Origin: Solirubrobacterales bacterium
GTDB taxonomy: Bacteria; Actinomycetota; Thermoleophilia; Solirubrobacterales; 70-9
NCBI GenBank assembly: GCA_035693065.1
Contig: DASSHE010000015.1
Coordinates: 18,814 to 82,813 of the forward strand
DNA: 64,000 bases
Direction: 5' to 3'
Shown: positions 11,845-26,585 of the stretch, piece after piece
How the letters are laid out: every line of letters begins with the position of its first letter
How positions within the stretch are numbered: position 1 is the stretch's first letter
The notes under the pieces: generated by a model
Told to the model about the DNA's origin: nothing
Databases searched by the model: none
What the model saw: only the letters and a program-made list of their open reading frames with translations
Position numbers and translations under genes: made by a program

Positions 11845-11879
11845 GTCCCTTTCCTGACTGGTGCTCCCACTGCCGACCT

Positions 11880-12560: not shown

Positions 12561-12688
12561 TCGGCACCCTCCACCTGGGACTCCCTAATCCGGGGTGCGG
12601 TCCCGGGCTGCCGACTGGCCGGCAATTTGCGGAGGGTGTTGATCCGGCTGAGCGGCCATCCCATTCTGGCAGGGTGCGTCGGCGACAT

Positions 12689-13033: not shown

Positions 13034-13317
13034 GCGACGCCCTCGACCTTGTACTCGTGGAGGATTTCGAGCTCGGCAAGGGCGCCCGAAAGGCAGTCGG
13101 TGATGGCTGGGTCGTCGGTGTCGCTGTAGAGGCTCAGCAGCCACCTGACGATCCCGAGCAGCTGCGCGTCGAGCTCCTCCGGCGTGTCGGGGATCAGCGC
13201 CGAGAGCATCGGCTTGGCCATCCCGAGCATCTGCAGCATCCGCGCCGTCTGCTCGTCCTCCGGCTGCACTCCCTCGGCGCCCGCGAGCGCCTGGTCCAGC
13301 TTCTCCAGTGAGTTCAT
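13030..13317 (-). CDS. acidic hypothetical protein (95 aa)
   Basis: Internal ATG (MNSLEKLDQ...) at 13317 follows an AAGGAC ribosome-binding site. The listed longer N-terminus is Arg/Pro-rich and overlaps the upstream gene. Confidence 0.55.
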   Translation of the reverse strand: MNSLEKLDQALAGAEGVQPEDEQTARMLQMLGMAKPMLSALIPDTPEELDAQLLGIVRWLLSLYSDTDDPAITDCLSGALAELEILHEYKVEGVA

Positions 13318-13330
13318 CGTGTCCTTTCGC

Positions 13331-13945: not shown

Positions 13946-14183
13946 CGGCTTCCTCTCGCGTCGGGGTCGGGGCGGGCGGCTCAGGCGCATCGCCGTAATC
14001 GAGAACGGTGGGTCCCTGCCCGGGCACATGCCCTGGCTCGGCCCCGCTGTGCCCGGGCACGTGCCCGGGCTCGGGGGCGGCTTTGCCAGGGCTCAGCAGT
14101 TGCTCGGCCTGCTTGCGGCGCCCGGCTGCCAGGGCTTCAAGCTGGCGCTGGCGCTTCTCGGGGTCGTTGCTGAGCCCTGGCAT
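13806..14183 (-). CDS. hypothetical first ORF of the leftward operon (125 aa), overlapping the next gene in another frame
   Basis: MPGLSNDPEKRQRQLEALAAGRRKQAEQLL... contains an EPGHVPG duplication. Its last ~140 nt overlap CDS 13331..13945, so the true extent is uncertain. Confidence 0.35.
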   Translation of the reverse strand: MPGLSNDPEKRQRQLEALAAGRRKQAEQLLSPGKAAPEPGHVPGHSGAEPGHVPGQGPTVLDYGDAPEPPAPTPTREEADERPEPTGPADDGGGNPEPARGGGDQRRGGAGGGFWDGVRDALAAG

Positions 14184-14438
14184 TGCCGGGGCATCCTGCT
14201 GTGCCCGGGTGGTCCTGGGAACCCGGGGAGACCCCTACCCACCCCTCCCCTGGTCCGGGGCCTCCCCCCGCCTCCCCATCTTCCGATACGGCCGCGCCGC
14301 CCCCAGGCTTGCCCTCTCCTCCCGGGGCGCCGCGAACCGCGACACAGCGAAAGCAGGCGCCCCGGGCACCCAACTTCCCCCCGTCGGCTCGGAAAGGACC
14401 ACGTTTTGAAGCTCGCAGGCGTCACCGCCACCCAGTTC

Positions 14439-14540
14439 ATGAAGACGGGGCTGATCGCCCTCCTCTTCATCCTCCTGTTCAAGTTCGTGGCGGCGAAGTC
14501 GAACATCGCCGGCCTGCAGAGCGTGGCGGGGGCGGTCTGA
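14439..14540 (+). CDS. small membrane protein (33 aa) immediately upstream of the capsid-protein candidate
   Basis: MKTGLIALLFILLFKFVAAKSNIAGLQSVAGAV. The stop overlaps the next ATG (TGATG at 14538-14542). Confidence 0.45.
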   Translation: MKTGLIALLFILLFKFVAAKSNIAGLQSVAGAV

Positions 14541-15823
14541 TGCGCGCCGAGCTCCTCGACAACCCCGTCAAGCGGATGCCCCAGAGCTTCCGCTTCACCG
14601 GCGAGCTCCGTGAGGCGTTCCGCGCCCGCGGCATCGACCTGGCCGACAGCGAGGCCGTCGCCGGCCTGATCGATCGCGGCCTCGGCCCGATCTCCGGCGG
14701 CGCGACCGGCATGGACGGCGCCGCCTTCATGCACAACCTCCCGCCCGAGGGCACCTTCGAAATGAACTCCGATCTGTTCTTCGCGCAGACGGAGCGAAAC
14801 GACGTGCCCCAGGGTCAGGTGGCCTTCCCCGGCCTCGGCGGTGCGCCATTCGACGTGCGGCTCTCCAACGTCGGCGTCCTGGCGAGCATCAAGATCATCT
14901 TCGAAGGCTCGCTCGTCGTCGCCGGCGGCGGCACCTGCACGGCCACCTACCAGTGGCCGTGGAACACGATGAAGCGCTTCTCGCTGTCGGCCAACGGGCA
15001 GACCTCCCTGCTCTCGGCCGAGGGCATGGACCTGCGGGCGCGCAACCAGCGGATCTACCGCAACCCGCGCGACCCCATGACCACGGCCACCCAGACCGAC
15101 GGCGTCTTCGGCGACCCCCAGGCCGGGGTGATCGCCAACGGCACCTACCCGATCCAGCTGATCTACGAGGTGCCGATCATCCACGACTGGTACACCCTGA
15201 CCGGCGCCCTGTTCGCACAGTCCGACCAGATCTACCTGGGCTGGCGCTTCACGCCGGCGGCGACCGCCGAACTGTTCACCCTCACCGGCGGCTCGACGGC
15301 GACGCTGACCGGGACGGTCAAGAGCACGACCACGTTCTTCGACGTCCCCTACGCCGACGTCCAGGGCGGGCGCAAAGTGCTGATCCCCGACCTGCAGTGG
15401 CTGCACGGGTTCGTCGGCTCGGATCTGCCTTTCGCCAACACCGGCGACGTCAAAGCGCCGTTCATCCGCACCAGCGGCGAGCTCCTGGCCTACTACTCCT
15501 ACCTCGACAACGGCGGCGCCGCGGTGATCGACCCCACGGCGCTCTCCGAGATCCGCTTCGAGTACGGAGGCAACCGCAAGCCGAGGGTCCACAACCCGCC
15601 GACCACGCTCCTCGACAAGAACGTCAAGGACTACAACGGCCGCATCCTGCCCAAAGCCGGCTACTCGGTCTTCGACTTCGAGTCCGACAACCCGAGCCGC
15701 GACCTGGTCTTCCCGAAGGGGGTGACGGAGCTGCAGACGGTGTTCGGGATCCCCGCGGGGACGACGATCAACGCCAACGCTCACGTCCACTTCGTGGAGG
15801 AGGCCCTGTTCGCAGGGCGCTGA
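14540..15823 (+). CDS. candidate double jelly-roll major capsid protein (PRD1 P3-like), 427 aa
   Basis: Internal ATG of listed ORF 14183..15823. No TM segments and beta-rich. Motifs FDVRLSNVGV, YEVPIIHDWYTLTGALFAQ, YSYLDNGGAAV and LPKAGYSVFDFESDNP run collinear (offset of roughly 40-50 residues) with PRD1 P3 FDVTPANVGI, YWVPLAYSETDLTGAVLAN, FDNGGS and FPKGVYYCDNRDKP, as recalled from memory. Confidence 0.65.
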   Translation: MRAELLDNPVKRMPQSFRFTGELREAFRARGIDLADSEAVAGLIDRGLGPISGGATGMDGAAFMHNLPPEGTFEMNSDLFFAQTERNDVPQGQVAFPGLGGAPFDVRLSNVGVLASIKIIFEGSLVVAGGGTCTATYQWPWNTMKRFSLSANGQTSLLSAEGMDLRARNQRIYRNPRDPMTTATQTDGVFGDPQAGVIANGTYPIQLIYEVPIIHDWYTLTGALFAQSDQIYLGWRFTPAATAELFTLTGGSTATLTGTVKSTTTFFDVPYADVQGGRKVLIPDLQWLHGFVGSDLPFANTGDVKAPFIRTSGELLAYYSYLDNGGAAVIDPTALSEIRFEYGGNRKPRVHNPPTTLLDKNVKDYNGRILPKAGYSVFDFESDNPSRDLVFPKGVTELQTVFGIPAGTTINANAHVHFVEEALFAGR

Positions 15824-15824
15824 G

Positions 15825-16232
15825 ATGGCGACCGGCAGAGCAACGGGTCGCGGCGGCGGCGTCCTCTCAGAGGCCGACGTCCGCGGCGGCGGCGAAATGG
15901 AGTGGGGCAACCTGATCGGCATCCACCCCGACCACCCGCTGGTAGCGGGCTCGGGGCCGGGCTCCTACTCGGGGGCGATCGTCAACGAGAACAGCCGGAT
16001 CGTCACCACCCCGGCCGGGCTGGCCGGGCCGGCGGGCGGCGTGATCGCGACGCCCGAAGGGGTCAGCCTGCGTCACCTCGACGACTGGCGCGACGTCTTC
16101 AACTTCAAAGGAAGCCCGGCGCCCTGGCTGCTGCTGGTGATCCTCGGCGTCGTCTTCTTCGCCCACGCCTCGGTGCGGGCTCGAGCCGGCGCCTTCGGCA
16201 AGAGCGCGAGCGCCCGCGCGGCCTTCGGCTAG
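15825..16232 (+). CDS. virion-module protein with C-terminal TM anchor (135 aa)
   Basis: Starts 2 nt after the capsid-candidate stop. C-terminal TM is PWLLLVILGVVFFAHA. Confidence 0.6.
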   Translation: MATGRATGRGGGVLSEADVRGGGEMEWGNLIGIHPDHPLVAGSGPGSYSGAIVNENSRIVTTPAGLAGPAGGVIATPEGVSLRHLDDWRDVFNFKGSPAPWLLLVILGVVFFAHASVRARAGAFGKSASARAAFG

Positions 16233-16240
16233 GGGGTCGC

Positions 16241-16366
16241 GTGGAAGCGCTCGCCCAGCTGCTGATCGGGATCGGGTTCATCGCGATCTTCATCAACTAC
16301 ATGAAGAACGGCCCCGAGGGCGTCAAGACCTGGTGGCGCGCGAAGTTCAAGGGGCAGACGGCCTGA
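16241..16366 (+). CDS. small membrane protein (41 aa)
   Basis: GTG follows AGGGGG. VEALAQLLIGIGFIAIFINYMKNGPEGVKTWWRAKFKGQTA. The stop overlaps the next ATG. Confidence 0.5.
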   Translation: MEALAQLLIGIGFIAIFINYMKNGPEGVKTWWRAKFKGQTA

Positions 16367-16473
16367 TGGCGGTCGGGATACTCCTCGCGCTGGTCGGCTT
16401 CTGGGTCGTCATGCGCACGGTCAACCGCGACTCCAGCGGCAGGACGCTGGTGAATCGGATTCTGCCCGCATGA
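16366..16473 (+). CDS. small membrane protein (35 aa)
   Basis: MAVGILLALVGFWVVMRTVNRDSSGRTLVNRILPA. Overlapping stop/start codons on both sides (TGATG upstream at 16364-16368, ATGA downstream at 16470-16473). Confidence 0.5.
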   Translation: MAVGILLALVGFWVVMRTVNRDSSGRTLVNRILPA

Positions 16474-17258
16474 CCGTCGTCGACCAGGCGGAGAACGTGG
16501 GCGGCGTCGTCTCGGCCGCGCGCCTGCGCGAGAGCTTCATGCGCCGCCGGGCGAACGCCTCCAACGAGGAGGAGCGCGAGGCCCTGGGCGACGCGATCGG
16601 CACGATCGAGGTCCGCTTCCCCGAGCTCGAGGACCTGCCCGCCGGCGGCGCCGAGCGCTTCGCCCGCGAGCGCGGCCACGGCAAAGGCGCCCGCAGCCCC
16701 AGCCACGAGGGCCGACAGCGCCACCGCCCGCCGGTCAAGCAGAAGCCGAAAGCGAAAGCCAAACCGCGGCCCAAGGCCGGGGGCGGTAAGACCGCGAGCT
16801 CGACGAAGCGCAGCCAGAGCTCCCGCACCAGTGCCCGCCGCTCCACGCGGGTCGAAGACCGGATCCGCAGCCGCGGCCGCCGCGCCTACACCGAAACCGG
16901 GATCCCCGCCGCCGGCGCCTCGGTCTCGCGGATCGCGATGAGCGCCCTCGGCGCCACCGTCGGCCTCGCGGCGGTCTACCTGCTGCTGACCTCGGCCGAG
17001 CGCCACGCCGGCAAGGAACCACCGCTGCTCGGTCTCCTGGTCGCCGTGACCGGCTTCCTGCGGCGGATCGTCGCGCCCGTTGACTTCTTCGGCCCCCAGA
17101 TGACGCAGCTGAACTACGCCAAGGCGATCGCCAACCCGACCGAAGCGGCCGCGATCGCCGTCAAGCACCCCACCAAGCTCCAGCCGCTTGGGGTGAAGCC
17201 GGCCGAGATCGGCATCTCCCCCACCCCCCGCCCCCGCGTCACTCACAAGAGGAGGTGA
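16470..17258 (+). CDS. membrane protein with Lys/Arg-rich central region (262 aa)
   Basis: Basic tract is KQKPKAKAKPRPKAGGGK. Two TM helices: IAMSALGATVGLAAVYLLL and LLGLLVAVTGFL. Confidence 0.65.
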   Translation: MTVVDQAENVGGVVSAARLRESFMRRRANASNEEEREALGDAIGTIEVRFPELEDLPAGGAERFARERGHGKGARSPSHEGRQRHRPPVKQKPKAKAKPRPKAGGGKTASSTKRSQSSRTSARRSTRVEDRIRSRGRRAYTETGIPAAGASVSRIAMSALGATVGLAAVYLLLTSAERHAGKEPPLLGLLVAVTGFLRRIVAPVDFFGPQMTQLNYAKAIANPTEAAAIAVKHPTKLQPLGVKPAEIGISPTPRPRVTHKRR

Positions 17259-17262
17259 CACC

Positions 17263-17414
17263 TTGAAGACCATCACCAAAGAGCTCGTCGGCATGACCGT
17301 GCTGCTCGTCCTGGCCTACCTGGTGCTCGTTCACTTCACGGGCTTTTCCCGTGATGTCGGAGCGCTCGGCTCGGCCTGGGTCAACGTCACGAAGACTTTC
17401 CAGGGCCGCGGGTA
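17263..17414 (+). CDS. small membrane protein (50 aa)
   Basis: TTG start follows AGGAGG. LKTITKELVGMTVLLVLAYLVLVHFTGFSRDVG.... Confidence 0.5.
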
Positions 17415-17421
17415 GGAATCG

Positions 17422-17823
17422 ATGCCCCCGCTCCAGCACCGCCATCCCTCGCGCGGCAGCCTCGCCCGCCGGCCGGCCTCTGCCCGGCAGGCCCAGGCGA
17501 TGCTGCCGCCGCCCCCTCCGGGGCCGAACCTCGGCGCCTTCGCCCAGCTCGGCGAGCTCCCGCAGGACGTCGTCGGGGCGGTCGTCGGGCAGCTGCGCAC
17601 CTCGCTGCTAGACGGGGCGACGGCGCTGCGCCTCGCCGGCCGCGGCCGCCAGCGCTACTTCGGCACCGAGATGCCGAGCCCGCAGCGGTTCACCGCACCC
17701 GCCAACGCCAACGACGAGGACTCGATCCGCGCCGGCGTCCGCTTCGCCGGCAACGCGCGGCGCACGGAGGGCAAGAACGCGAGCCGCGGCCTGCGCAGGG
17801 TCTCCCCGGGAGTGATGATCTAG
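17422..17823 (+). CDS. hypothetical virion-module protein (133 aa)
   Basis: ATG ORF abutting the next gene (stop 17821-17823, next ATG at 17824). No TM and no recognised motif. Confidence 0.5.
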   Translation: MPPLQHRHPSRGSLARRPASARQAQAMLPPPPPGPNLGAFAQLGELPQDVVGAVVGQLRTSLLDGATALRLAGRGRQRYFGTEMPSPQRFTAPANANDEDSIRAGVRFAGNARRTEGKNASRGLRRVSPGVMI

Positions 17824-18462
17824 ATGGCTGAGGCACCCGCCACCGGCAAGGGCCCGCTGAAGAAGCTGACGCCCAAACAGAAGCGCTACGCGATGGTCCT
17901 CGGCGCCGCCGCGGTCCTCGCGCTGATCTACCTGCTGCAGCGCCGCTCGGCGGCCCCCGCAGAAGGACAGAGCCCCAGCACCGCCGAAAGCGCCGGCGCC
18001 GGCTCCCCTTCCTACCCGGTCAGCGGTGGCGGCGGGACCGACCCCAGCGCCTTCATCGGCGCCCAGAGCGAACAGATCGGCAGCGCCCTGGGCGAAGTCA
18101 GCAGCGGGCTCGGTGAAGTCAGCGGCGGCCTCGGCGAAGTGATCGGCAGCAACGACCGGCTCGGCGTCCAGGTGGAAACCAACCTCGACGAAATCGGCGA
18201 AGCCCAGGCCCGGACGCTCGCGGCGCTCGGCAAGCAGGGCAAGAACATCACCGCTATCCGCAAAAAGCTCGCGAAGCCGCCGCGGCCGGTCAAAGGCAAG
18301 CCGGGGTCCGGCAAGCCCCATTCCAAGGCGCAGCCTCCCAAGCCGACGAAGGGCAAGCCGGGCTCCGGCAAGCCCCATTCAAAGCCTCAGCCTCCCAAGC
18401 CACAGCCGAGACCCAACCCCAGACCGCCGGCGCCAAAGGCGCCCAAGAAGAAAGGCAAGTAG
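17824..18462 (+). CDS. membrane-anchored repeat protein (212 aa)
   Basis: N-terminal TM is AMVLGAAAVLALIYLL. GEVS mini-repeats are followed by two 19-aa repeats KGKPGSGKPHSK(A/P)QPPKP and a Pro/Lys-rich tail. Confidence 0.65.
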   Translation: MAEAPATGKGPLKKLTPKQKRYAMVLGAAAVLALIYLLQRRSAAPAEGQSPSTAESAGAGSPSYPVSGGGGTDPSAFIGAQSEQIGSALGEVSSGLGEVSGGLGEVIGSNDRLGVQVETNLDEIGEAQARTLAALGKQGKNITAIRKKLAKPPRPVKGKPGSGKPHSKAQPPKPTKGKPGSGKPHSKPQPPKPQPRPNPRPPAPKAPKKKGK

Positions 18463-18963
18463 ATGAGTGAGGAAGCACAGATTTTCAACCAGGCGACCCA
18501 GCCGGCCGCCCCCGCACAGCAGACGGTGACGGCGACGCCGCCGGTGCAGCCGCCGGTCCAGATGCCGGCCGAGATCACTCCGCAGGCACCATCCGCGGCC
18601 GCCGAGGAAATGCCCGAGGAGTGGCCGGTCAAGGGCTACGCGGGTCCCCAGCCCTGGGAGGTCTCGCGGCCGCCGGCGCTCGCGCATGACCGCCGTCTCC
18701 TGATCTCCGGCTCCGCCGGCGACGAGGTCTTGGAGCTCTGCGCCTGCCTCGGCCGGCTCGGCTACGAAACCTCGGTCTCCCGCGGCGAGAACGCCCTCGC
18801 GGTATTCGGCGCCGCCGAGCGCACCGCGGTCGAGCGCTTCCGCGCCGACTACGGCGTGCAGGAGGACCCGGCGATCATCAGCGCCACGACCCCCGACGCC
18901 GTCGGGCCGTGGACCTGGGAGGCGCTTTTCCGCCTCGTCAACCGGGTCGAAGGAGGCGAGTAG
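18463..18963 (+). CDS. protein with C-terminal peptidoglycan-binding-like domain
   Basis: GDEVLELCACLGRLGY...FGAAERTAVERFRADYGVQEDPAI...VGPWTWEAL follows the PG_binding_1 pattern (G..V..LQ..L..LGY...FG..T..AV..FQ...G...DG.VG..T...L). Confidence 0.55.
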   Translation: MSEEAQIFNQATQPAAPAQQTVTATPPVQPPVQMPAEITPQAPSAAAEEMPEEWPVKGYAGPQPWEVSRPPALAHDRRLLISGSAGDEVLELCACLGRLGYETSVSRGENALAVFGAAERTAVERFRADYGVQEDPAIISATTPDAVGPWTWEALFRLVNRVEGGE

Positions 18964-18967
18964 GCGG

Positions 18968-19240
18968 ATGGACCGGCTGCCCGGGCCTCAGTTCAGCCCC
19001 CACGACCTCGCGCCGTGGTGGGCTGAGCCGAGCATGGACACCGACCGGCCGGTAGCGGTCGGTCGGGCCATGCCCGCATCGCACTTCCCCCTGCCCGGGT
19101 GGCCGGCCGCCTCGACCGTCGACTACCTGACCAAACTGATCCTGCTGGGGCTGCTGCTGCTGGCGCTGCCCTACCTGATCGGCAAGGCCCTGACCAGCCC
19201 CGGCACGGTGCTGGCGGTCGCTGGACGGGCGGCCAAGTGA
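18968..19240 (+). CDS. small membrane protein (90 aa)
   Basis: TM is LILLGLLLLALPYLI. The stop overlaps the next GTG (GTGA). Confidence 0.55.
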   Translation: MDRLPGPQFSPHDLAPWWAEPSMDTDRPVAVGRAMPASHFPLPGWPAASTVDYLTKLILLGLLLLALPYLIGKALTSPGTVLAVAGRAAK

Positions 19241-19809
19241 GCGTCCTCAGCGACGTCCAAATCGCCTGGTACATGCTCCGCGCGGGCTTCCCCGCGGACC
19301 CGCGGGTCCTGGCCGAAGGGATCGGCGTTGTGCGCGCCGAGAGCGGCGGCAACCCCAAGTCAGAGGTCCCCGGCAACGAACACATCGGGATGTGGGCTGA
19401 GTCCTCGGCCTTCGGGACCCGCGGCGAGCGCCTGGACCCGCTCGCCGCGACCAAAGCCGCCTACAAGCAGTGGCTCGCCGACGGCAAGAGCTTCTGGTCG
19501 GCCTGGGGCCGCTGGGAGTCCGAACAGGCCGGCCGCGACGGCGCGACCACCTGGCACGCCCACCTGGGAGCGGCGCGGCAGGCGCTCGCCGGATTCGGCT
19601 CCGCGCCGGGCTCGGGCGCCAGCACTCCCAAGAGCGCCTTCCGGCGGCCGGCGGCCGGCGAAGAAGGCAGCGGCGGACCCTCGGGATTCCTCGTCTTCCT
19701 GGTGAACGGCGTCCTGATCCTCGGTGGCGTCGCCCTGATGGCGTTCGGCGGTATGCGCGCGGTCGGCGCCGGCGGCGGTAAGACCGGGCTCGAGGGAGCG
19801 GCCGCGTGA
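19237..19809 (+). CDS. lytic-transglycosylase-like protein with C-terminal TM anchor
   Basis: GTG at 19237. GIGVVRAESGGNPKSEV...GMWAES resembles the lysozyme-like/SLT catalytic Glu-Ser region. C-terminal TM is FLVFLVNGVLILGGVALMAF. The architecture parallels PRD1 P7. Confidence 0.6.
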   Translation: MSVLSDVQIAWYMLRAGFPADPRVLAEGIGVVRAESGGNPKSEVPGNEHIGMWAESSAFGTRGERLDPLAATKAAYKQWLADGKSFWSAWGRWESEQAGRDGATTWHAHLGAARQALAGFGSAPGSGASTPKSAFRRPAAGEEGSGGPSGFLVFLVNGVLILGGVALMAFGGMRAVGAGGGKTGLEGAAA

Positions 19810-20558
19810 CTAGCTACGTCTACCCATTCGCATCCGGTGCTACTACGGGGCGCATTGATCAGGGTCAGGACTTCGGCGGCACTGGTCCGATCTACGCGAT
19901 CGGTAACGCGAGGATCACCAGCCTCGGTGCCCCGGGTTGGCCAGGCGGTCGCGGCATCCTCTACCAGCTGCTCGATGGCTCGCGTCGGGGTCAGTACGTC
20001 TTCGTCTACGAGGGGGTGCGCCCAAGCGTGCGGGTTGGACAGGTGGTGGGGGCCGGCCAGAGGATCGGATCGCTGATCCCGGGTAGCTCCACCGGAATCG
20101 AGATTGGCTTTGCCGACGCCAACGGCGTTCCCCTCTCCCACAGCGAATACACCGAGGGCAAGGAAACCGTCCGCGGTAAGGAAATGGCGCGATTTCTGGC
20201 TCACCTGAAGGCTGGTGGCGGAAAGACCGACTATGGCGGTGGTCCGATCGGATTCGCCAAGCAGTTCGTATTCGGTGATCCCCTCGAAGCCCTAGGGATC
20301 GGGTCGGGTCAGGGCCTCAAGCAGGACATCCTTGGGGTGGGGGGCCAAGCTGCGTCCACGGTCGGCGCCCAGGTGGTCGAATACATCGGAGGTCTCCTCG
20401 GCGAGAAGGCCGCGCCGATCCTCCTGACCATCGCCCTGGTCGTCGGCGGGGCCTTCCTCATCTACTTCGGCCTGGCCCGGGCAGTGGGGGTAGCGCAGCC
20501 CGTCGCCACCCCGCTCCGCGCCGTCCGCGCGGGCGCAATCGCGGGAGCCGCGGCATGA
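19806..20558 (+). CDS. M23/LytM-like beta-domain protein with C-terminal TM segments
   Basis: GRIDQGQDFGG..PIYAIGNARI...VRVGQVVGAGQRIGSL...GIEIGFA follows the M23 fold pattern. I could not see the canonical HxxxD/HxH zinc ligands. TM is ILLTIALVVGGAFLIYF. Confidence 0.55.
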   Translation: MTSYVYPFASGATTGRIDQGQDFGGTGPIYAIGNARITSLGAPGWPGGRGILYQLLDGSRRGQYVFVYEGVRPSVRVGQVVGAGQRIGSLIPGSSTGIEIGFADANGVPLSHSEYTEGKETVRGKEMARFLAHLKAGGGKTDYGGGPIGFAKQFVFGDPLEALGIGSGQGLKQDILGVGGQAASTVGAQVVEYIGGLLGEKAAPILLTIALVVGGAFLIYFGLARAVGVAQPVATPLRAVRAGAIAGAAA

Positions 20559-20977
20559 ACGATCGCCTGCCCCAACACCCCGACGACCCGACCGCAGCCA
20601 AGCTCGCCCGCATCGAGCAGCTGCTCGCCGACATGCGAGCCGAGCAGTGCCGCGGCAACGCGCCAGCGCAGCTGCACGCGATCACCTTCGAAGGCGCCGC
20701 CAAGAAGTACATCCGCCGCAGCGAGCACCCGCCCGCGGCGCTGTCGATCGGGATCGTCAACCCCGTCGAACTGAGCATCTACGTCGGCCTCTCCGGCGAG
20801 CGGGCCGCGCCGAACAGCCGCGCCTTCGTCGTGCCGCCGAAGTCGGCGATGGTCGTCCCGGTCGCCGTGGACAAGTTCGAGCTCGGCGTGGATCCCACCG
20901 TCCTGGGCGAAGAATCGGCGACGATCTTCCTGCTGCGCTTCGACACGGTGCAGCCGTTCTTCCTGGGGTCGATGTGA
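20555..20977 (+). CDS. small beta-rich protein (140 aa), penton/vertex candidate
   Basis: N-terminal helix followed by ~100 aa of alternating hydrophobic strands (ALSIGIVNPVELSIYVGL...MVVPVAVDKFELGV...IFLLRF). Size fits single jelly-roll penton proteins. Weak inference. Confidence 0.4.
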   Translation: MNDRLPQHPDDPTAAKLARIEQLLADMRAEQCRGNAPAQLHAITFEGAAKKYIRRSEHPPAALSIGIVNPVELSIYVGLSGERAAPNSRAFVVPPKSAMVVPVAVDKFELGVDPTVLGEESATIFLLRFDTVQPFFLGSM

Positions 20978-21672
20978 GCGATCTCGCGAGCTGGAGCTCG
21001 GCGCCGGCGGCTCCCACCCTCGCCACGATCTTCGTCGGCGACGGCAGCACCAACAACGTCAAACAGTTCGTCGAAGAACAGGCGCCGGCCGAACGGATCA
21101 AAGTCGTTGAGGAAGTCGTCGGCAAAGGCGCCCTGGTGCTGCAGTTCGAAGTGCGCGAAGGCGACCCCGAAATCGCCGCCGGCCACCGCTCCGAGCTCGT
21201 CTCCGGAAAGACCTTCCGCCACGGCGACCACCTCTTCTTCGGCTTCGGCGTCAAGCGCGAAGAAGGCGACAACACCCCGGGGCACTGGCAGATGTTCTTC
21301 CAGTTGCACGACCAGAGCGGGGGCTCGCCGCCGCTGTGCCTGCAGTACTTCAAATCCGGCGGCAAGGTCTGGGCGTGGCTCGGCTCGGGCGACGGCACCA
21401 AGGAATACTGGGAAGGCGAAGTCGGCGAAGAAGGCAAAGCCTGGGTCGACCTGCTGATCCGCCTCAAGGTTGGCACCACCGACGGTGAAATCGAAGTGTG
21501 GCGGGACAAGGTCCTGCAGAAGCTGATCGGCGGGGGCACGGTCAAGCGCGGCCAGAACACCGAGGGCGTCGCGCCGCTCTACGACAAGATCGGCATCTAC
21601 CGCACCGGCGCCTCGGTCGGCACCACCAAAACCCGGATGCGTAACTACTTCATCGCCAGGGTGCTGCCGTGA
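20974..21672 (+). CDS. polysaccharide-lyase-like / ConA-like jelly-roll protein (spike or receptor-binding/depolymerase candidate)
   Basis: GTG at 20974 (GTGA overlap). HRSELVSGKTF..GDHLFFGF...WQMFFQLHD...PPLCLQY...WVDLLIRLKVGTTDGEIEVWRD...LYDKIGIYR matches the Polysacc_lyase (PF14099-type) pattern. Confidence 0.55.
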   Translation: MSDLASWSSAPAAPTLATIFVGDGSTNNVKQFVEEQAPAERIKVVEEVVGKGALVLQFEVREGDPEIAAGHRSELVSGKTFRHGDHLFFGFGVKREEGDNTPGHWQMFFQLHDQSGGSPPLCLQYFKSGGKVWAWLGSGDGTKEYWEGEVGEEGKAWVDLLIRLKVGTTDGEIEVWRDKVLQKLIGGGTVKRGQNTEGVAPLYDKIGIYRTGASVGTTKTRMRNYFIARVLP

Positions 21673-21992
21673 GCGCCGCCATGAACAACGTCCAGGCGCC
21701 GGACACCTACACCACCGCGGCGACCCTCACCTGCCCCGGCACCGCCCGGGTGCGGCTGCAGATCAACAACCAGGCGATCTACTGGCAGCGCGGCTACAGC
21801 TCCCCCGGCGGCGGCGGGATCGAATGGCAGCCCGAAGAGATGCTGCTGCCGATCACCGCGAGCCTCGACGAGCGCTGCGACGCGATCCGCATCCGCGCCG
21901 CGGTGCCGTTGGCCAAACTCCCGGCCGGCTCCGAACAGGCCCGGGTGACTATCGGCACCCGTACCGCCGCCGAGATCGGCGAAGCGGCATGA
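21669..21992 (+). CDS. small beta-rich hypothetical protein (107 aa)
   Basis: GTGA-coupled start and ATGA-coupled stop. No recognised motif. Confidence 0.5.
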   Translation: MSAAMNNVQAPDTYTTAATLTCPGTARVRLQINNQAIYWQRGYSSPGGGGIEWQPEEMLLPITASLDERCDAIRIRAAVPLAKLPAGSEQARVTIGTRTAAEIGEAA

Positions 21993-22690
21993 GCGACGCG
22001 CTGACCCCCAGCTTCATCACGGTCGACGCCGCCGGCAACGTCGGCGCGATCTTCCCGGGGACGATCGTCGCGGGCAACATCAAAGTCGGCGACCTCTCCG
22101 AGATATCCCCGGCGCTGGGCGAAATCACCAGCGGCCTGATCGAAGGAACCACGATCCGCGGTTCGGTGTTTGAAACCAACGCCGAATCCGGCAACAACCT
22201 GGTGATCAACAACAACGGGATCACGCTGCAGGCATCCGGCGAAGCCGTCCCCAAAATCCTCAGCACGATCAAGTGGGAAAAGTCGGGGTCGATCACCGGG
22301 CAAGTCTGGACCTCTGCGCAGGCTTCCAACGACCTGCGGGTGAAGGTGAAGGGCGCCAAAGAAGGCCCCGACGTCGAACGGACGATCATCAACAACCTCG
22401 GCTGGTCGAGCTTCCTGCAGCTGGCCAAACTCCAGGCGGCAAAGGTCGAATTCGGCGCGGGTAACTGCGGCTGGAACGCCGGCGCCCACCTCAGCAACAC
22501 CACGGTCGTCGAACACGGCCTTGGCGCGGTTCCGCGCCTGGTCCTCGTGTCCCCCTATCAGTCCGAAGGCGAAACCCACATCGCGATCTTCAACGCCTTC
22601 GCCTACACCGAAACCACCTTTAGCGTCAACGGCTACTGGCCCGGCATCGGGCCTGGAAATAACGGGTTCAAATGGATGGCGATCGTCTAG
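21989..22690 (+). CDS. spike/fibre-like protein (233 aa)
   Basis: ATG at 21989 (internal to listed ORF 21824..22690). Gly/Asn/Thr/Ser-rich beta-type sequence (GNNLVINNNGITLQASG..). Its position follows the lyase-like protein. Confidence 0.5.
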   Translation: MSDALTPSFITVDAAGNVGAIFPGTIVAGNIKVGDLSEISPALGEITSGLIEGTTIRGSVFETNAESGNNLVINNNGITLQASGEAVPKILSTIKWEKSGSITGQVWTSAQASNDLRVKVKGAKEGPDVERTIINNLGWSSFLQLAKLQAAKVEFGAGNCGWNAGAHLSNTTVVEHGLGAVPRLVLVSPYQSEGETHIAIFNAFAYTETTFSVNGYWPGIGPGNNGFKWMAIV

Positions 22691-22872
22691 CCGGGCAGCC
22701 ACCGGCCGAGCCCGCCGCGGCCGACGGGATCCTGATCAGCCTCCAGCGCGACGGCGACCAGGTGCAGCTTGACGTCACCAGCCTGGGCGACGTCCGCGTC
22801 ACCGAGCTCCCAGCGCTCCTCGGCCTCGCCCGCAAGCTCTCCGAAGACCGCCTCGGCATCGGGAGGGGGTGA
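22672..22872 (+). CDS. hypothetical protein (66 aa)
   Basis: ORF overlaps the previous stop by 19 nt. Acidic. Confidence 0.4.
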   Translation: MDGDRLAGQPPAEPAAADGILISLQRDGDQVQLDVTSLGDVRVTELPALLGLARKLSEDRLGIGRG

Positions 22873-22877
22873 GTCAA

Positions 22878-22970
22878 GTGAAGCCCAAGGGCCACAAGAA
22901 GTCCTGCCCCTGCCCCGTCTGCCGCAAGAGCCGGCGCCGCCGCAAGAGCCGTCGTCGCCGCAAGCGCTGA
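22878..22970 (+). CDS. 30-aa Arg/Lys-rich peptide with CPCPVC motif
   Basis: GTG follows GGGAGGGGG. VKPKGHKKSCPCPVCRKSRRRRKSRRRRKR. Below the ORF-track cutoff, my own translation. Confidence 0.35.
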   Translation: MKPKGHKKSCPCPVCRKSRRRRKSRRRRKR

Positions 22971-23025
22971 CCCCGTACTCGAGTCGAGTCTTACCGCCGT
23001 CGACCACGGCGCCGAAAGGAAGCAA

Positions 23026-23370
23026 ATGAACCCCTATCCGCCCAAGCGCCTCGCCGTCGTCCTGGTCGGCCTGCTCGCGCCTTTGATCATGGCCTTCTCG
23101 ACCGTCGTCGCCAACGAGGCCCAGACGCTCCTGCACCTGCACCTCGCCGGCGATGCCCTGGCCGCCTATCTCTCCACCTTCCTGATCGCGGTCGGCGCCG
23201 TCCTCTTCCGCCTTCTGGAGCACGAGGCGTCGCGGTTCCTGCACGGCCTGGTGCAGCTGCTCCTCAAGTCCTCGGCGTCCATGCCGATCCCCCAAGCCTC
23301 GCCCGGTCCTCCCCCACCGCCACCGCCCGGGCCGACCGCCGTGGTCCCGCCGACCCCGCCGAGCGCATGA
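23026..23370 (+). CDS. holin-like membrane protein (114 aa)
   Basis: AAAGGAAG ribosome-binding site. Two TM helices (LAVVLVGLLAPLIMAFSTVV, AAYLSTFLIAVGAVLFRLL) and a Pro-rich tail. Immediately precedes the hydrolase-like gene with an ATGA overlap. Confidence 0.55.
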   Translation: MNPYPPKRLAVVLVGLLAPLIMAFSTVVANEAQTLLHLHLAGDALAAYLSTFLIAVGAVLFRLLEHEASRFLHGLVQLLLKSSASMPIPQASPGPPPPPPPGPTAVVPPTPPSA

Positions 23371-23984
23371 GCGTCCGCGAGCGGATCAAGAAGCTGCGCT
23401 ACCACCTGGCGCTGGGCAGGAAGCGGATCGCGCGGATCGTCGGCTTCAACACCCGCCGCCGCCGTGCGATCAAGCGGCTGCGCGACGAGCTCGGCTCCCG
23501 GGTGATGTTCGACTCGGTGACGATCGAGGAGATCCCCAAGAACGCCGACGCCGTCGCCGGCTACACCGGCGGCAACTGGCCGACCTACTGGGAGCTGGTC
23601 AAGAGGTTCCCCCACGCCTCGGTGCTCGACATCGCGATCGCGGCCTCCTACGACGCCACCTGTCTCGATATCGAGTCCGGCGACGCCTCCCCGGAGGAGG
23701 CTCCGTCCTGGGTGCGGCGCCAGCAGGCCCGCGGGGTCAAGCGCCCGGTCGTCTACACCAGCGCCTCGCAGATGGACGAGCTCCTGGCCCTGCTCCGGCG
23801 AGCCGGGATCGGCCGCCACGAGGTGCGGGTCTGGACGGCCCACTACACCTTCGCGCCGCACCTCTGCGGTCCACACACCTGTGGGGAAGTCCAGAGCACC
23901 ACGGCCGACGCCACCCAGTGGACCGACCAGGCGCTGGGGCGTAACCTCGACCAGAGCCTCTTGCATGAGGGCTTCTTCGGCTGA
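23367..23984 (+). CDS. endolysin candidate, Rv2525c-like/DUF1906 (GH25-related TIM-barrel-like) domain
   Basis: AVAGYTGGNWPTY...ASVLDIAI...CLDIESGDA...PVVYTSASQ...VWTAHY...ATQWTD resembles the glycoside-hydrolase-like DUF1906 family. Confidence 0.5.
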   Translation: MSVRERIKKLRYHLALGRKRIARIVGFNTRRRRAIKRLRDELGSRVMFDSVTIEEIPKNADAVAGYTGGNWPTYWELVKRFPHASVLDIAIAASYDATCLDIESGDASPEEAPSWVRRQQARGVKRPVVYTSASQMDELLALLRRAGIGRHEVRVWTAHYTFAPHLCGPHTCGEVQSTTADATQWTDQALGRNLDQSLLHEGFFG

Positions 23985-23988
23985 GCCG

Positions 23989-24228
23989 GTGGGAGGCGAA
24001 GGAATCATTGCCGCCGCCGTCGGCGCGCTCGCCGGCGGCGGCGGCGTGCGCGCCCTGGGGCGCTTCATCGGCCCCCAGCACCGCGCCGACGTCGCCGAGT
24101 ACTACCGGGAGGTGATCGAAGGTCTCGTCGAGGAAAACCGCGAACTGCGGGCCGAGCTCGCGGGCATCCGCCGGCGGATCACCGACCTGGAGCTGGCCCA
24201 GGACGACCCCCCGCCCCACCTCGGCTGA
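23989..24228 (+). CDS. small TM plus coiled-coil protein (79 aa), lysis accessory candidate
   Basis: GTG at 23989. Hydrophobic N-terminus is GIIAAAVGALAGGGGV, followed by the heptad-like EVIEGLVEENRELRAELAGIRRRITDLELA. Confidence 0.45.
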   Translation: MGGEGIIAAAVGALAGGGGVRALGRFIGPQHRADVAEYYREVIEGLVEENRELRAELAGIRRRITDLELAQDDPPPHLG

Positions 24229-24254
24229 GAAACGGCCCTCTGAGAGCCGTTCTC
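24227..24254 (+). terminator. stem-loop at the end of the rightward late operon
   Basis: GAGAAACGGC-cctctgaga-GCCGTTCTC forms a 9-bp stem with one bulge and overlaps the stop codon. No T-tract follows. Confidence 0.4.
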
Positions 24255-24293
24255 GCGGCCTTCGAGCGGTGCCCGCTGGTGATCCGTCGCGGG

Positions 24294-24415
24294 CTTCTGG
24301 CCAGAAGTAAGACGCCGACGTCGGCGGGGCGCCCTCGGCCGAAAGCACCCCGCCGACGTCGGCGGTCTTACCTGGATCCGGGTCTTACCGCGCCGACGTC
24401 GACGCGGTAAGACCC
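24294..24415. promoter_or_regulatory. cluster of nested palindromes carrying four GTAAGAC half-sites (operator/iteron/bidirectional-terminator candidate)
   Basis: CTTCTGGCCAGAAG lies at 24294-24307. GTAAGACgCCGACGTCGGCGGGG (24307-24329) pairs with CCCCGCCGACGTCGGCgGTCTTAC (24348-24371). A 36-nt near-perfect palindrome GGGTCTTACCGCG...CGCGGTAAGACCC lies at 24380-24415. Confidence 0.6.
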
Positions 24416-24428
24416 GGAGATCCCCCAC

Positions 24429-24635
24429 CTACTTCTTCTTCGGCACCTTGGCGTCGCGGATTGCCTGGCGCAACACTTCGCTGCGCTTTCGCGGCGTGCC
24501 GCGGTAGTGGTAGTGGTAACCCATTGGCACCCCGTATTCGGCTTCGGCGAGTTCGTCGAGCTTCGCCAGGTCCTCGTCGCTGAGCTTGACCGAGATCGTC
24601 GTGCGCCGGCCGTTCCAGGTCTCCTGCGGCATCAC
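24429..24635 (-). CDS. ribbon-helix-helix (CopG/Arc/MetJ-type) DNA-binding protein
   Basis: 68 aa. RRTTISVKLSDEDLAKLDELAEAE...RSEVLRQAIRDA fits a beta-strand plus two helices. Flanked on both sides by GTAAGAC palindromes. Confidence 0.6.
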   Translation of the reverse strand: MMPQETWNGRRTTISVKLSDEDLAKLDELAEAEYGVPMGYHYHYRGTPRKRSEVLRQAIRDAKVPKKK

Positions 24636-25000
24636 CGACCTCCAGCTGCAGACTGGTAAGACCCGTCGCGATCGCGACGGGTCTTACTCGCCGCCGGCGG
24701 GCGGTAAGACCCGCCTCGACGAGCAGGGCACGGCACCACCCGCGGCGGCGAGCCCAGGACGTGGAGGACGACGTAGCAGCGGTGCCGCGACCACAGGGTC
24801 CCGGCCTGCGTGCTCGGCGCCCGGACGCCGACGATGAGCACCACGGCGAGGACGATCGCCGCGGCGCGGCGCTCCAGCTGCTTGCGCGCCTTCGTGGCTT
24901 GCACAATTTCGGCGCGACGGCCCTGCCCTCGCTCCCGTTGCTTCTTGTGGAAGTACTGCACGAGGAAGGGCCTCGGGTATCCCTGCGGTGCATCAGCCAT
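24632..25000 (-). CDS. hypothetical small membrane protein (122 aa as ORF; C-terminal third doubtful)
   Basis: ATG at 25000 (MADAPQGYP...) with TM AAAIVLAVVLIVGV. The distal part is Arg-rich and is encoded by the palindrome region, so the real product may be shorter or the region non-coding. Confidence 0.4.
   Translation of the reverse strand: MADAPQGYPRPFLVQYFHKKQRERGQGRRAEIVQATKARKQLERRAAAIVLAVVLIVGVRAPSTQAGTLWSRHRCYVVLHVLGSPPRVVPCPARRGGSYRPPAASKTRRDRDGSYQSAAGGR
24656..24712. promoter_or_regulatory. perfect 32-nt palindrome GTAAGACCCGTCGCGATCGCGACGGGTCTTAC plus one more GGTAAGACC copy, just upstream of the RHH gene
   Basis: Palindrome at 24656-24687 and extra half-site at 24704-24710. Located 21 nt upstream of the RHH start codon. 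Confidence 0.6.
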
Positions 25001-25322
25001 TGACAACTACCTCCCGTCTGTCTCGCTTCTTCAACCAAGGGTTGGCCGCGAGCGCAGCGGCGTGTCGCCGTTCGCGCTCGCGGCGGCTCCGCCGCAGCTG
25101 CTCGGTGTGTCGCGCCCAGGCGATTTCGGAGATCCCGTCCACCGCAAGGACGAAGTTGGCGACCTGGTCGAGGCCGATACCGACGCCCTCGACCAAACCG
25201 CCGCGCTTGCCGACGATCGCCAGATGCACACCTTCACCGTGCAGGGCCGGCCGCACCAGCACGGCCCTGCCCTCGGTTGTGGGGATGCGCTCGGCGACCG
25301 GCCCCTGCCGGCCGGCGATCAC
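24993..25322 (-). CDS. hypothetical protein (109 aa) with basic C-terminus
   Basis: Coupled to neighbours by short overlaps on both sides (25319-25322 upstream, 8 nt downstream). Basic tail is RRSRRERERRHAAALAANPWLKKRDRR. Confidence 0.5.
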   Translation of the reverse strand: MIAGRQGPVAERIPTTEGRAVLVRPALHGEGVHLAIVGKRGGLVEGVGIGLDQVANFVLAVDGISEIAWARHTEQLRRSRRERERRHAAALAANPWLKKRDRREVVVNG

Positions 25323-25780
25323 GCGACACGCCTGGGGTCAAACGCCGGGGCCATCAGCGCCTCAAGGCGCTGGCGCTCGCCGCCTGACAAGCAGGCGTCG
25401 TGAAGGCCGACTGGCGCCGGCGCCATTGGGTTCAGCGCCTGGCCGATCGCGTCGATCGCGACGTCGATCGCGCTCTCATGCAGGCGCATCACCTTCTCCG
25501 GCGTGGTCTCGCCGTAGGCGTAGAACCAGATGCAGGCGAGCTCGCCGGTGAAGGCAATCCGCGCGGTGCCGTTGAACGTGCGGATCAGCGCCGGCAGGCG
25601 CCGCTCCAGGGCATCCTGCAGCTGCTCGGCCTGCTTGTGGCCGAGCATGATTCCGTAGGCACCCTTTGAACCGCGCTGCCCTTCGGCGTAATACCAGGCG
25701 TGTAGCACGCCGTCGATCGGCGGGCCGCCCCCGATTACGAGGTCTCCGCCGCCGTGGGTGGCGATCGTCCTTCCGTCCAT
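25319..25780 (-). CDS. hypothetical protein (153 aa)
   Basis: Internal ATG (MDGRTIATHGG...) at 25780 follows AAGGAG. The listed longer ORF upstream is Arg/Ser-rich and overlaps the next gene. Confidence 0.55.
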   Translation of the reverse strand: MDGRTIATHGGGDLVIGGGPPIDGVLHAWYYAEGQRGSKGAYGIMLGHKQAEQLQDALERRLPALIRTFNGTARIAFTGELACIWFYAYGETTPEKVMRLHESAIDVAIDAIGQALNPMAPAPVGLHDACLSGGERQRLEALMAPAFDPRRVA

Positions 25781-25784
25781 GCGA

Positions 25785-26345
25785 TCATGCTCCTTCGGTT
25801 GATCGTTCGCCGGCGCCGTGGTTACCGCCGCGGCGCCGGCCTTTCTTTCGCTTGGGGGGAGCCCAGCTAGACCGCCAACCCGGCGGCGCCGTCTCCTCCC
25901 GCTCGGCGCTCTTGCGGCGCCAAGATTTCGACACTTCCTCCAGCAGGGGGATGAAGTACGCAGCCGATCGCGGTCGCTGGACCCGGCCCCAGCGACACTC
26001 CTCGATGTGGGCATCGACCATCGCGGTCGCGAACTCCAGCCCCGCTCCCTCCCGGCCGCGGCCGAAGTCGGCGTAGTGGTCCATTCGAGCGAAGACCCGC
26101 TCCAACCGCTTGTGGGCGAAAAAGGGCTCCTCGGGCTGCAACCGCTCCTCGACGTGGCGCAGGAAGGCCGCCACGGCCGGTGAGACGCGCCGTGGTCGCG
26201 ATCCCGGACCGGCCCGACCCCCGCCCCTACCCAGCTGCGGTTGGCCCGGCTCGCTGCCGGGGCTGGCACCCTCGGGTGATCCTGGGCGCGGCAACGCCGC
26301 GCTGGCCCCTGGGCAGTTAGTCGGCGGGGCGCAGCCCCGCTGCAT
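25785..26345 (-). CDS. hypothetical early protein (186 aa), first gene of the leftward early module next to attR
   Basis: ATG at 26345 (MQRGCAPP...). Globular core is FLRHVEERL...FAHKRLERVFARMDHYADFGRG...MVDAHIEECRWGRVQRPRSAAYFIPLLEEV with a basic tail. Function unknown. Confidence 0.5.
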   Translation of the reverse strand: MQRGCAPPTNCPGASAALPRPGSPEGASPGSEPGQPQLGRGGGRAGPGSRPRRVSPAVAAFLRHVEERLQPEEPFFAHKRLERVFARMDHYADFGRGREGAGLEFATAMVDAHIEECRWGRVQRPRSAAYFIPLLEEVSKSWRRKSAEREETAPPGWRSSWAPPKRKKGRRRGGNHGAGERSTEGA

Positions 26346-26351
26346 GGTCGC

Positions 26352-26411
26352 CTCGTCGCGCGCGCGCGACGAGCCCTTTAAGGGTTTAGGCCCCCCTAGG
26401 GGGCTAAACCC
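26352..26411. promoter_or_regulatory. perfect 22-nt palindrome CTCGTCGCGCGCGCGCGACGAG plus adjacent hairpin GGTTTAGgCCCCC-CTAG-GGGGGCTAAACC
   Basis: Located at 26352-26373 and ~26383-26410, directly upstream of the 26345 start. An A8 tract follows at 26442-26449. Confidence 0.45.
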
Positions 26412-26556
26412 CCCTTCAGGACTGGGCACTTCGCCCGAACCAAAAAAAATGCGCCGGGCCGTAGAGGCGGCCCTGTGGGGGCGCCGACGATCGTCCTCCT
26501 GAGCCCCCAGGGGGCGCCTGGACGGCAGGCGTCGGTGCGTTCCACGCGTTCCACGG

Positions 26557-26585
26557 CGCGCAGATAACTGGTGGTTATGTCAACT
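26557..26585. repeat. right boundary repeat, degenerate dif-like (attR candidate): GCGCAGATAAC-TGGTGG-TTATGTCAACT
   Basis: Direct repeat of 10187-10214 with one extra C after ATAA and a G-to-C change in the right arm. It lies 4 nt from the stop of host gene 26590..27300. Confidence 0.6.

Follow-up and report, generated by a model that had tools for sequence, protein, structure and literature searches.

A conserved, element-specific array of GTAAGAC boxes and palindromes around a ribbon-helix-helix gene in a Solirubrobacterales prophage

Introduction

The stretch of Solirubrobacterales DNA analyzed here (64,000 nucleotides of contig DASSHE010000015.1, in the following called the window, whose coordinates are used throughout) carries an integrated viral element of 16.4 kb, for which the borders 10187-26585 were used, with dif-like repeats at the ends. 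A small gene of this element, coding for a ribbon-helix-helix (RHH) protein, is bracketed on both sides by copies of the 7-mer GTAAGAC, and this locus raises the question of what reads these copies and to which end they are maintained. The original prediction, made from the letters of the DNA, regarded them as candidate operators of the RHH protein, acting as a lysogeny switch, and/or as iterons of a replication origin. The analysis reported here shows that they constitute a real, conserved and element-specific cis-regulatory array, while the identity of its reader is weighed below among several possible explanations.

Results

Arrangement of the boxes

A box is defined here as an exact GTAAGAC (plus strand) or GTCTTAC. 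The features of the array and of the gene it surrounds are the following:

24429 to 24632, minus strand: RHH gene (Pfam RHH_1), 67 amino acids from its ATG, which is directly preceded by a GTG codon at 24635
24307 to 24313, plus strand: box 1, aGTAAGACg, outer foot of the long hairpin
24365 to 24371, minus strand: box 2, GGTAAGACC on the minus strand, inner foot of the long hairpin
24382 to 24388, minus strand: box 3, GGTAAGACC on the minus strand, in the left arm of the 36-nt palindrome, with GGATCC at the centre of the 10 nt that separate it from box 2
24407 to 24413, plus strand: box 4, GGTAAGACC, in the right arm of this palindrome, with the RHH stop codon 15 nt away
24656 to 24662, plus strand: box 5, GGTAAGACC, promoter-proximal, upstream of the RHH GTG by 20 nt and of the ATG by 23 nt
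24681 to 24687, minus strand: box 6, aGTAAGACC on the minus strand, common to the 32-nt palindrome and to an N16 dyad with box 7
24704 to 24710, plus strand: box 7, GGTAAGACC, distal upstream, followed by CCGCCTCGA
24307 to 24371, minus strand: long hairpin flagged by a terminator scan, with 30 bp (3 of them G·U) in RNA of the RHH sense and with the tail GUCUUACUUCU
24380 to 24415, no strand assigned: near-perfect 36-nt palindrome GTCTTAC-N18-GTAAGAC, symmetric at 34 of 36 positions
24656 to 24687, no strand assigned: perfect 32-nt palindrome GTAAGAC-N18-GTCTTAC, directly upstream of the RHH ribosome-binding site

All seven sites and the three palindromes of the original prediction were thus recovered where they had been placed; the arms of its 23/24-nt inverted repeat (24307-24329 and 24348-24371) do pair, with one bulged base, and its extra half-site at 24704-24710 lies within GGTAAGACC at 24703-24711. 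A fourth dyad that it did not mention, GTCTTAC-N16-GTAAGAC at 24681-24710, links boxes 6 and 7. The fuller form of the box is R-GTAAGAC-S, frequently GGTAAGACC, and may be written as a 9-bp pseudo-dyad GGT-AAG-ACC.

The array had been placed at the junction of the late and early modules, which agrees with the operon map: the late operon on the plus strand ends at 24228, and the early operon on the minus strand, as delineated by its codon-usage profile (26347 to 25785, about 25780 to 25319, 25322 to 24993, an open reading frame (ORF) beginning with "MAD...", and RHH from 24632 to 24429), ends with the RHH gene. By this map, the boxes occupy two places, namely the 200-bp gap in which the early and late operons converge and the approximately 85 bp upstream of the RHH start.

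Enrichment of the 7-mer

The claim that such a repetition is unlikely to be due to chance was borne out by three counts. The window contains 12 copies of GTAAGAC, compared with 1.72 expected from shuffles, and none of 100 shuffled versions reached 12. Within the element, GTAAGAC comes out on top of an unbiased ranking of all 7-mers, with 11 copies observed versus 0.4 expected. In the assembly of 2.88 Mb, GGTAAGACC occurs 13 times, with 8 copies in the 16.4-kb element and 5 in the other 2.86 Mb, so the motif does not occur at similar density throughout the genome, an outcome that would have spoken against the proposal. A chance origin of the boxes is therefore ruled out. Two known kinds of chromosomal sites were also rejected: a reading as dif/Xer sites was dismissed because the dif-like repeats read ACGCACGATAATGGTGGTTATGTGAAC and are unrelated to the boxes, and a reading as KOPS-like polar motifs was dropped because the orientation of the boxes is mixed.

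Conservation of the boxes in loci with the same RHH family

Relatives of the RHH protein were sought in 5.8 billion proteins, which yielded six further members with 60-80% identity on metagenomic contigs (L004/5, L006/7, L008, L009, L025 and L026/27; the window locus is referred to as WIN). Where the contigs reach far enough, the synteny is the same, with the RHH gene convergent on the late or lysis operon. The original prediction had proposed to look for conservation in homologous elements, and exact GTAAGAC boxes were indeed found beside the gene in all seven distinct loci of the family, with 3-11 copies within about 200 bp versus 0.06-0.75 expected per locus (in the order given above, the six relatives carry 5, 9, 9, 11, 6 and 5 copies versus 0.06-0.53 expected). 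Their layouts are given below in the sense of the RHH gene, with > for GTAAGAC, < for GTCTTAC and numbers for the spacers in nucleotides:

WIN: upstream <16>18<, then 20 nt; downstream 15 nt, then <18>10>51<
L008: upstream <16>18<, then a 96-aa gene; downstream >10<20>16>49<18>
L009: upstream <18>15>18<, then 23 nt; downstream >10<14>51<23>12<18>
L006: upstream <16>19>16<, then 26 nt; downstream >17>55<18>
L004: upstream >18<, then 33 nt; downstream >16>18>, then contig end
L025: contig begins 22 nt upstream of the gene; downstream >17<17>...<18>10>
L026: upstream none; downstream >15>16<

The flanks contain 49 exact boxes and only 2 one-mismatch variants, while the spacers, although they stay palindromic, and the interiors of the hairpins vary between loci. 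This indicates that the 7-mer is held base by base and not by pairing alone. The boxes are thus element-specific, under selection at each base and co-occurring with the RHH family.

A recurrent layout is apparent upstream of the gene, consisting of <N16-18>N15-19 with a final box in either orientation, followed by 20-33 nt to the start codon, and the variant <N16>N18< is common to WIN and L008. In L008, the RHH gene is separated from the cluster by an additional gene, so that the cluster tracks the start of the transcription or translation unit rather than the RHH start itself. On the other side, a box overlaps the RHH stop codon (AAGTAAGAC) in five of the six relatives. Adjacent box pairs are separated by gaps of 10-23 bp, with modes at 18 (11 cases of N18) and 16 (7 cases of N16). 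As a separate observation, an accessory gene of 91-96 aa precedes the RHH gene in L008 and L026.

Further searches gave no additional members. The capsid protein of the element was found only in the genome of the window itself among 401 genomes of the same class and had no relatives in the IMG/VR viral contigs, and a profile search with the RHH protein against JGI metagenome contigs returned no match. The pattern GGTAAGACC-N14-18-GGTCTTAC gave 15 matches in viral contigs, all of them of low G+C content, unrelated and devoid of this RHH gene, and a three-box pattern gave 96 matches in metagenome contigs; none of the 80 loci listed for it codes for this RHH protein, and they represent other repeat families. 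Some unrelated metagenomic loci of 60-65% G+C (L049/L079, L068/L084 and L038) carry intergenic arrays of 5-6 GTAAGAC/GTCTTAC copies that are spaced by about 10-12 bp and have no homologue of RHH-A (the family described here) in their vicinity; these are probably operators of another regulator sharing the 7-mer by coincidence.

Boxes elsewhere in the element and the sister group

Four dispersed boxes lie outside the array, three in sense and one in antisense orientation, of which the three in coding sequence are not conserved in L006:

22988 to 22994, minus strand: single intergenic box, 32 nt ahead of the lysis cassette (gene 23026-23370)
12780 to 12786, minus strand: dispersed box within a coding region, reading D-A-G-K-T, of uncertain function
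16786 to 16792, plus strand: dispersed box within a late gene, reading A-G-G-G-K-T, absent from the L006 counterpart
19778 to 19784, plus strand: dispersed box, 3' end of a late gene, reading A-G-G-G-K-T, absent from the L006 counterpart

In WIN and in L006 alike, the single box before the lysis cassette stands at a distance of 1312 nt from the cluster, so its position is conserved. As it is unpaired, it cannot exert an effect by forming a stem.

Two more distantly related loci, L002 and L003, which encode a capsid protein with 71% identity, are devoid of RHH-A as well as of any GTAAGAC, and each carry three copies of GTAWTAC instead. The box before the lysis cassette is orthologous across the two groups and lies in a shared context (CTCGAGCAAC-7mer-CGCCGTCGAC), with GTCTTAC in WIN and L006 and GTAATAC in L002 and L003. 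At the point of operon convergence, L002 contains a perfect GTATTAC-N18-GTAATAC palindrome, and L003 a GTATTAC at the centre of a CTCGAG dyad. Sixteen nucleotides before this dyad ends a different RHH gene, whose product matches RHH_1 at 19.1 bits (E = 1e-3) as well as the DUF6290 and NikA-like models and has the beta-strand RRVVSVRL; a homologue search with this protein retrieved only itself. A joint switch of all boxes of an element is the outcome to be expected if they co-evolve with a reader acting in trans.

In these loci, the early operon terminates in a variable slot (L003 6351-6742; L002 6329-6646), which is occupied in L003 by a zinc-finger-like CxxC ORF of 70 aa, followed by the second type of RHH gene, and in L002 by a Cys-rich ORF of about 100 aa.

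The hairpins

The stem of the long hairpin begins 58 nt past the RHH stop codon, is GC-rich and stands at the 3' end of the transcription unit. It was flagged on the RHH strand by the terminator scan with the tail CGTCTTACTT; the tail CGUCUUACUU passes the scan rule of 5 T in 8 bases, but is short, and reads TTTCG in L006 and L009 and is GC-rich in L008 and L025. The hairpin reads as an intrinsic terminator of the mRNA of RHH and the early operon. It folds at -60.6 kcal/mol in the RHH sense versus -52.1 kcal/mol in antisense, and hairpins of 28-31 bp are present in WIN, L006, L008 and L009, each with a different stem sequence. Because a MAFFT alignment of these hairpins was structurally inconsistent, the pairing was judged sequence by sequence. 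In four of four loci, 2-3 G·U pairs are found in the RHH-sense RNA versus 0-1 on the other strand, and the RHH-sense fold is more stable by 6-11 kcal/mol; the G·U pairs of the RHH sense become A·C mismatches on the opposite strand. This strand asymmetry indicates that selection acts on the RHH-sense RNA of the long hairpin.

Compared with shuffled sequences, the folding of the array is exceptional, with z = -11.3 (the region of 24380-24415) and -9.5 downstream of the RHH gene and -4.3 upstream of it. The spacers between inverted boxes are dyad-symmetric at 69% of their positions versus a background of 28.5% (p = 1e-30), and those between directly repeated boxes at 46% (p = 1e-3).

The RHH protein

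The gene is preceded by a GGAGG ribosome-binding site, and its product passes the Pfam RHH_1 model with 31.9 bits versus a cut-off of 20.5 (E = 1.1e-7); the precomputed assignment of all its homologues is likewise PF01402. The 67 residues match the RHH model only and do not include a C-terminal domain for tetramerization or metal binding. The beta-strand GRRTTISV, which in an RHH protein is the part that reads the DNA, is unchanged in the alignment of all seven family proteins. A sequence search of the PDB with the RHH protein gave no meaningful match. It is the sole recognizable DNA binder among the element proteins tested, as none of the others matches a DNA-binding family at a significant score. 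A possible RHH domain in the 165-aa gene at the end of the element was discarded, the tblastn match amounting to just E = 0.16.

Surroundings of the array

With PHROGs and Pfam, 20 neighboring proteins yielded, besides RHH, a weak match to the PRD1-P3 capsid protein, a polysaccharide lyase, and weak endolysin and terminase-family matches. The terminase-family match (phrog_2666, E = 0.0034) belongs to a 226-aa protein, which is a candidate packaging ATPase. The weak capsid and terminase-family matches and the dif-like repeats agree independently with a tailless, PRD1-like prophage. An Rfam search gave only far-sub-threshold noise from microRNA hairpins. Neither a ParA-type partner nor a Rep protein or other replication initiator was recognized among the element proteins scanned.

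A conserved non-coding element separates the box cluster from the late operon:

24229 to 24290, minus strand: approximately 60 nt of conserved non-coding sequence, located past the stop codon of the last late gene and before the box cluster

Its two small hairpins have loops that are conserved as well, GGATCAC and CUCUCAGAGG (loops GAGGGATCACAA and CTCTCAGAGG), and its end reads GGGCCGTTTTC. Counterparts are present in L002 (about 6560-6640), L008 (about 880-945), L025 (about 440-500) and L026 (about 1520-1600); in most loci the element has the box cluster on one side and the last late gene on the other, in L026 it lies just upstream of RHH, and in the RHH-less L002 before the palindrome. A role as terminator, small RNA or origin-like structure is conceivable.

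The "MAD..." ORF (24632-25006, minus strand) has its start where the gene before it stops (overlap ATGGCTGA) and crosses the upstream boxes without a stop, with a coding signal that fades near 24740. Its N-terminus is kept in L004, L006, L008, L009 and L026 at lengths of about 45 to 135 aa, and it may represent a real small protein, a leader peptide or a mere open frame over the operator. An Arg-rich mini-ORF containing CPCPVC (22878-22970) lies directly upstream of the single box, and its DNA is conserved in L002, L003, L006 and L026. The peptide A-G-G-G-K-T occurs in three different late proteins (16776-16794, 19768-19786 and 20211-20229), encoded by nearly identical DNA (GCCGGSGGCGGTAAGACCG, with GGAAAGACC as the third copy), while the L006 orthologues do not have the motif; these copies could reflect selection for extra boxes within genes, gene conversion or a peptide motif.

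Ahead of the early operon, both subgroups show a highly conserved region (26351-26454) that is free of GTAAGAC. It contains a run of eight T (26440-26454), a dyad GGGGGTTTAGCCCCCTAGGGGGGCCTAAACCC (26382-26413) and GCTCGTCGCGCGCGCGCGACGAGG (26351-26374), and is probably the early promoter together with an operator of a different regulator, the first early gene probably starting at an ATG near 26347 and not at 26429. Compared with L002 and L003, the early module and the 165-aa end gene (24993-26429 and 10237-10669) have swapped ends and orientation relative to the capsid/ATPase body; the early operon of L002 and L003 converges on the ATPase arm and not on the late operon, which is equivalent to inverting the segment with dif against the body.

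Discussion

The boxes as candidate sites of the RHH protein

The reading we favor, at a probability of roughly 0.55, is that the boxes represent cognate sites of RHH dimers that are fused with terminator hairpins, and that they would serve to autoregulate and insulate the RHH gene and to touch the lysis cassette. We infer from the sequence data that the RHH protein is the binder of the boxes, and the effects of binding may be pictured as follows. The protein would be produced from the last gene of the minus-strand early operon, and one dimer would bind to each 9-bp pseudo-dyad GGT-AAG-ACC. Occupation of the three boxes upstream of its own ribosome-binding site may result in negative feedback, either as operator or as roadblock, while occupation of the four boxes in the 200-bp convergence gap, together with the terminator and the palindromes, would seal the gene from converging late transcription. 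Binding to the one conserved box 32 nt before gene 23026 may finally affect the expression of the lysis cassette.

The proposal of RHH operators has therefore to be divided into its parts. The operator part is retained, as all seven RHH loci carry the exact 7-mer and the relatives without this RHH another one at the same places. The lysogeny switch is unsupported since the main promoters are without boxes: neither a consensus nor a one-mismatch box occurs at the divergent promoter region (14030-14440) or at the promoter region of the early operon (26350-26585). The origin iterons are likewise unsupported, though conceivable: an iteron origin combines direct repeats, an AT-rich region and an initiator gene, while the boxes are mostly inverted, the array region has about 70% G+C without any AT-rich stretch for unwinding, and no initiator was recognized among the element proteins scanned.

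Several observations weigh against the favored reading. The centers of the boxes are mostly 23 or 25 bp apart. This is too far for dimers of a 67-aa protein to touch each other directly, and cooperation between such dimers is usually seen at a spacing of roughly one helical turn. A protein that merely binds the boxes would also leave the strong dyad symmetry of the spacers without an explanation. L002 contains variant boxes and no RHH gene at its convergence point, representing the sole counter-example, and L026 is without any upstream cluster. RHH is not the only protein specific to one group because the lysis and spike genes differ between the groups, too. An operator at a promoter is not established for the upstream cluster, since a scan for sigma-70-type promoters returned no site and no TANNNT-type -10 element is discernible there by eye. 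Finally, an AlphaFold2 model of the monomer, which is poor (pLDDT 58), shows helices at residues 19-32 and 50-60, an extended N-terminus with no strand in the absence of a partner chain, and an atypical loop of 17 residues between the helices.

Alternative explanations

The RHH protein may bind the boxes while the array serves a DNA transaction, as a packaging signal for an FtsK/HerA-type ATPase or as a centromere-like or origin-like complex. Systems of this kind have the gene of a small DNA-binding protein within the cluster of its own sites; in tailed phages, for instance, pac or cos sites are located in or beside the gene of the small terminase. We regard this explanation as rather unlikely, although it would account for boxes that bracket the RHH gene on both sides away from the main promoters and for a cluster where two operons converge instead of at an operon start. 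Cruciforms could form from the perfect palindromes if the circular genome is supercoiled, the neighboring conserved element has hairpins with conserved loops of its own, the prophage is without a recognized replication initiator, and centromere binding by RHH proteins is known for 7-bp repeats of either orientation (PMC9499535). However, neither a ParA-type partner nor a Rep protein was found among the element proteins scanned, the gene of the candidate packaging ATPase is 12 kb away, the G·U asymmetry of the long hairpin points to a role in RNA, and the single box before the lysis cassette looks regulatory; moreover, arrays bound by omega need at least four gapless heptads (PMC9499535), compared with gaps of 10-23 bp here. 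The more specific proposal that the array and the RHH protein form the genome-recognition locus, i.e., a packaging signal or origin, of an undescribed actinobacterial double jelly-roll virus family with circular, dif-integrating genomes, in which RHH would mark the DNA for the FtsK/HerA-type ATPase or for the start of replication and the palindromes would extrude as cruciforms, is considered unlikely.

If the reader were another factor, namely a host protein or a different protein of the element that both subgroups share and whose specificity has shifted by one base, position alone would link the RHH gene to the boxes. The palindrome and the variant box before the lysis cassette that are kept in the RHH-less L002 fit this view, as do the motifs differing by one base in homologous places of elements that share uncharacterized early proteins at 35-50% identity, and the box spacing would suit a larger or bridging protein better than a dimer of 67-aa chains. 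Yet no match to a DNA-binding family was obtained for any of the shared early proteins, boxes are densely clustered (7-11 copies) solely where RHH-A occurs, as opposed to three boxes per element in the sister group (group B), and a host factor should have sites genome-wide, whereas just five GGTAAGACC exist outside the element in 2.86 Mb; such a reader appears quite improbable. It is also conceivable that no protein reads the boxes at all and that the RNA or DNA hairpins act as bidirectional terminators and transcript stabilizers, with the boxes as their relatively A/U-rich feet. The dyad symmetry of all spacers, the extreme stability of the folds (z = -9.5 to -11.3), the terminator-like tail after the long hairpin and the expectation of terminators between convergent genes are all in line with this, but it is rendered very unlikely by stem interiors that covary freely around a fixed 7-mer (49 exact copies versus 2 variants), by the order GTCTTAC...GTAAGAC, the direct repeats and the conserved singleton, none of which gives a hairpin with a U-rich tail, and by the joint switch of all boxes to GTAWTAC in the other subgroup.

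Comparison with known systems

Assuming that RHH dimers do bind the boxes, the closest analogue in working terms may be omega, the ParB of pSM19035, which is an RHH repressor and centromere binder that occupies 7-bp heptads with one dimer per unit and requires at least four contiguous ones (PMC9499535). Both systems combine a small RHH protein with an asymmetric 7-bp unit in direct, converging or diverging orientation, the arrays of omega comprising 7-10 units (PMC9499535), and one dimer per box is proposed here. In contrast to the contiguous heptads of omega, the boxes of the element are 10-23 bp apart in GC-rich palindromes, and omega has a ParA partner, of which none was seen among the element proteins scanned; the similarity is limited to the fold family. 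The operator of NikR (GTATGA-N16-TCATAC; PMC7055735) resembles GTAAGAC-N16/N18-GTCTTAC in presenting inverted half-sites about 16 bp apart, so the spacing agrees. However, the gap is spanned in NikR by a tetrameric C-terminal nickel-binding domain, and the 67-residue protein does not contain such a domain.

Other RHH autoregulators of mobile elements are Arc and Mnt of P22, CopG of pMV158 and F55 of the archaeal virus SSV1. They share with the locus described here the small RHH protein of a virus or plasmid and the repeated sites beside its own gene, where binding is predicted in our case, but their operators are located at promoters with a spacing of about one turn, whereas the boxes stand on both sides of the gene, without an evident promoter and within hairpins, one of which is a probable terminator. 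The stoperators of cluster A mycobacteriophages are 13-bp sites, 20-30 in number, with one orientation relative to transcription. Like these, the boxes are asymmetric sites of a (putative) repressor scattered over a prophage, including positions between late genes; unlike these, only four are dispersed, in mixed orientation, with three of them in coding sequence and not conserved, which sets them apart from stoperators. The dif-type PM2-like prophages of Vibrio, whose lysogeny module consists of the P16/RstR repressor and P15/XafT (PMC12715192), are likewise tailless double jelly-roll prophages with a dif-like site, no integrase and a small regulatory module near the attachment end (PMC12715192). 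They differ in that P16/RstR and P15/XafT are not RHH proteins, that no array of the GTAAGAC type has been described for them, and that their hosts belong to another phylum (PMC12715192).

Implications

The locus provides a concrete, testable pair of cis and trans components, a 67-aa RHH protein and a box of 7-9 bp, for a group of viruses without prior regulatory data, namely the tailless, membrane-containing prophages of Solirubrobacterales, whose integration at dif does not involve an integrase. The two subgroups amount to a natural specificity experiment, with GTAAGAC accompanying RHH-A and GTAWTAC in the sister group. Among RHH regulators, such a layout is unusual: the boxes are 23-25 bp apart, form the feet of GC-rich palindromes, lie on both sides of the gene, where one overlaps the stop codon, and are merged with a probable terminator. 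If the proposed binding is true, this layout would show how a minimal repressor insulates its gene where two operons collide.

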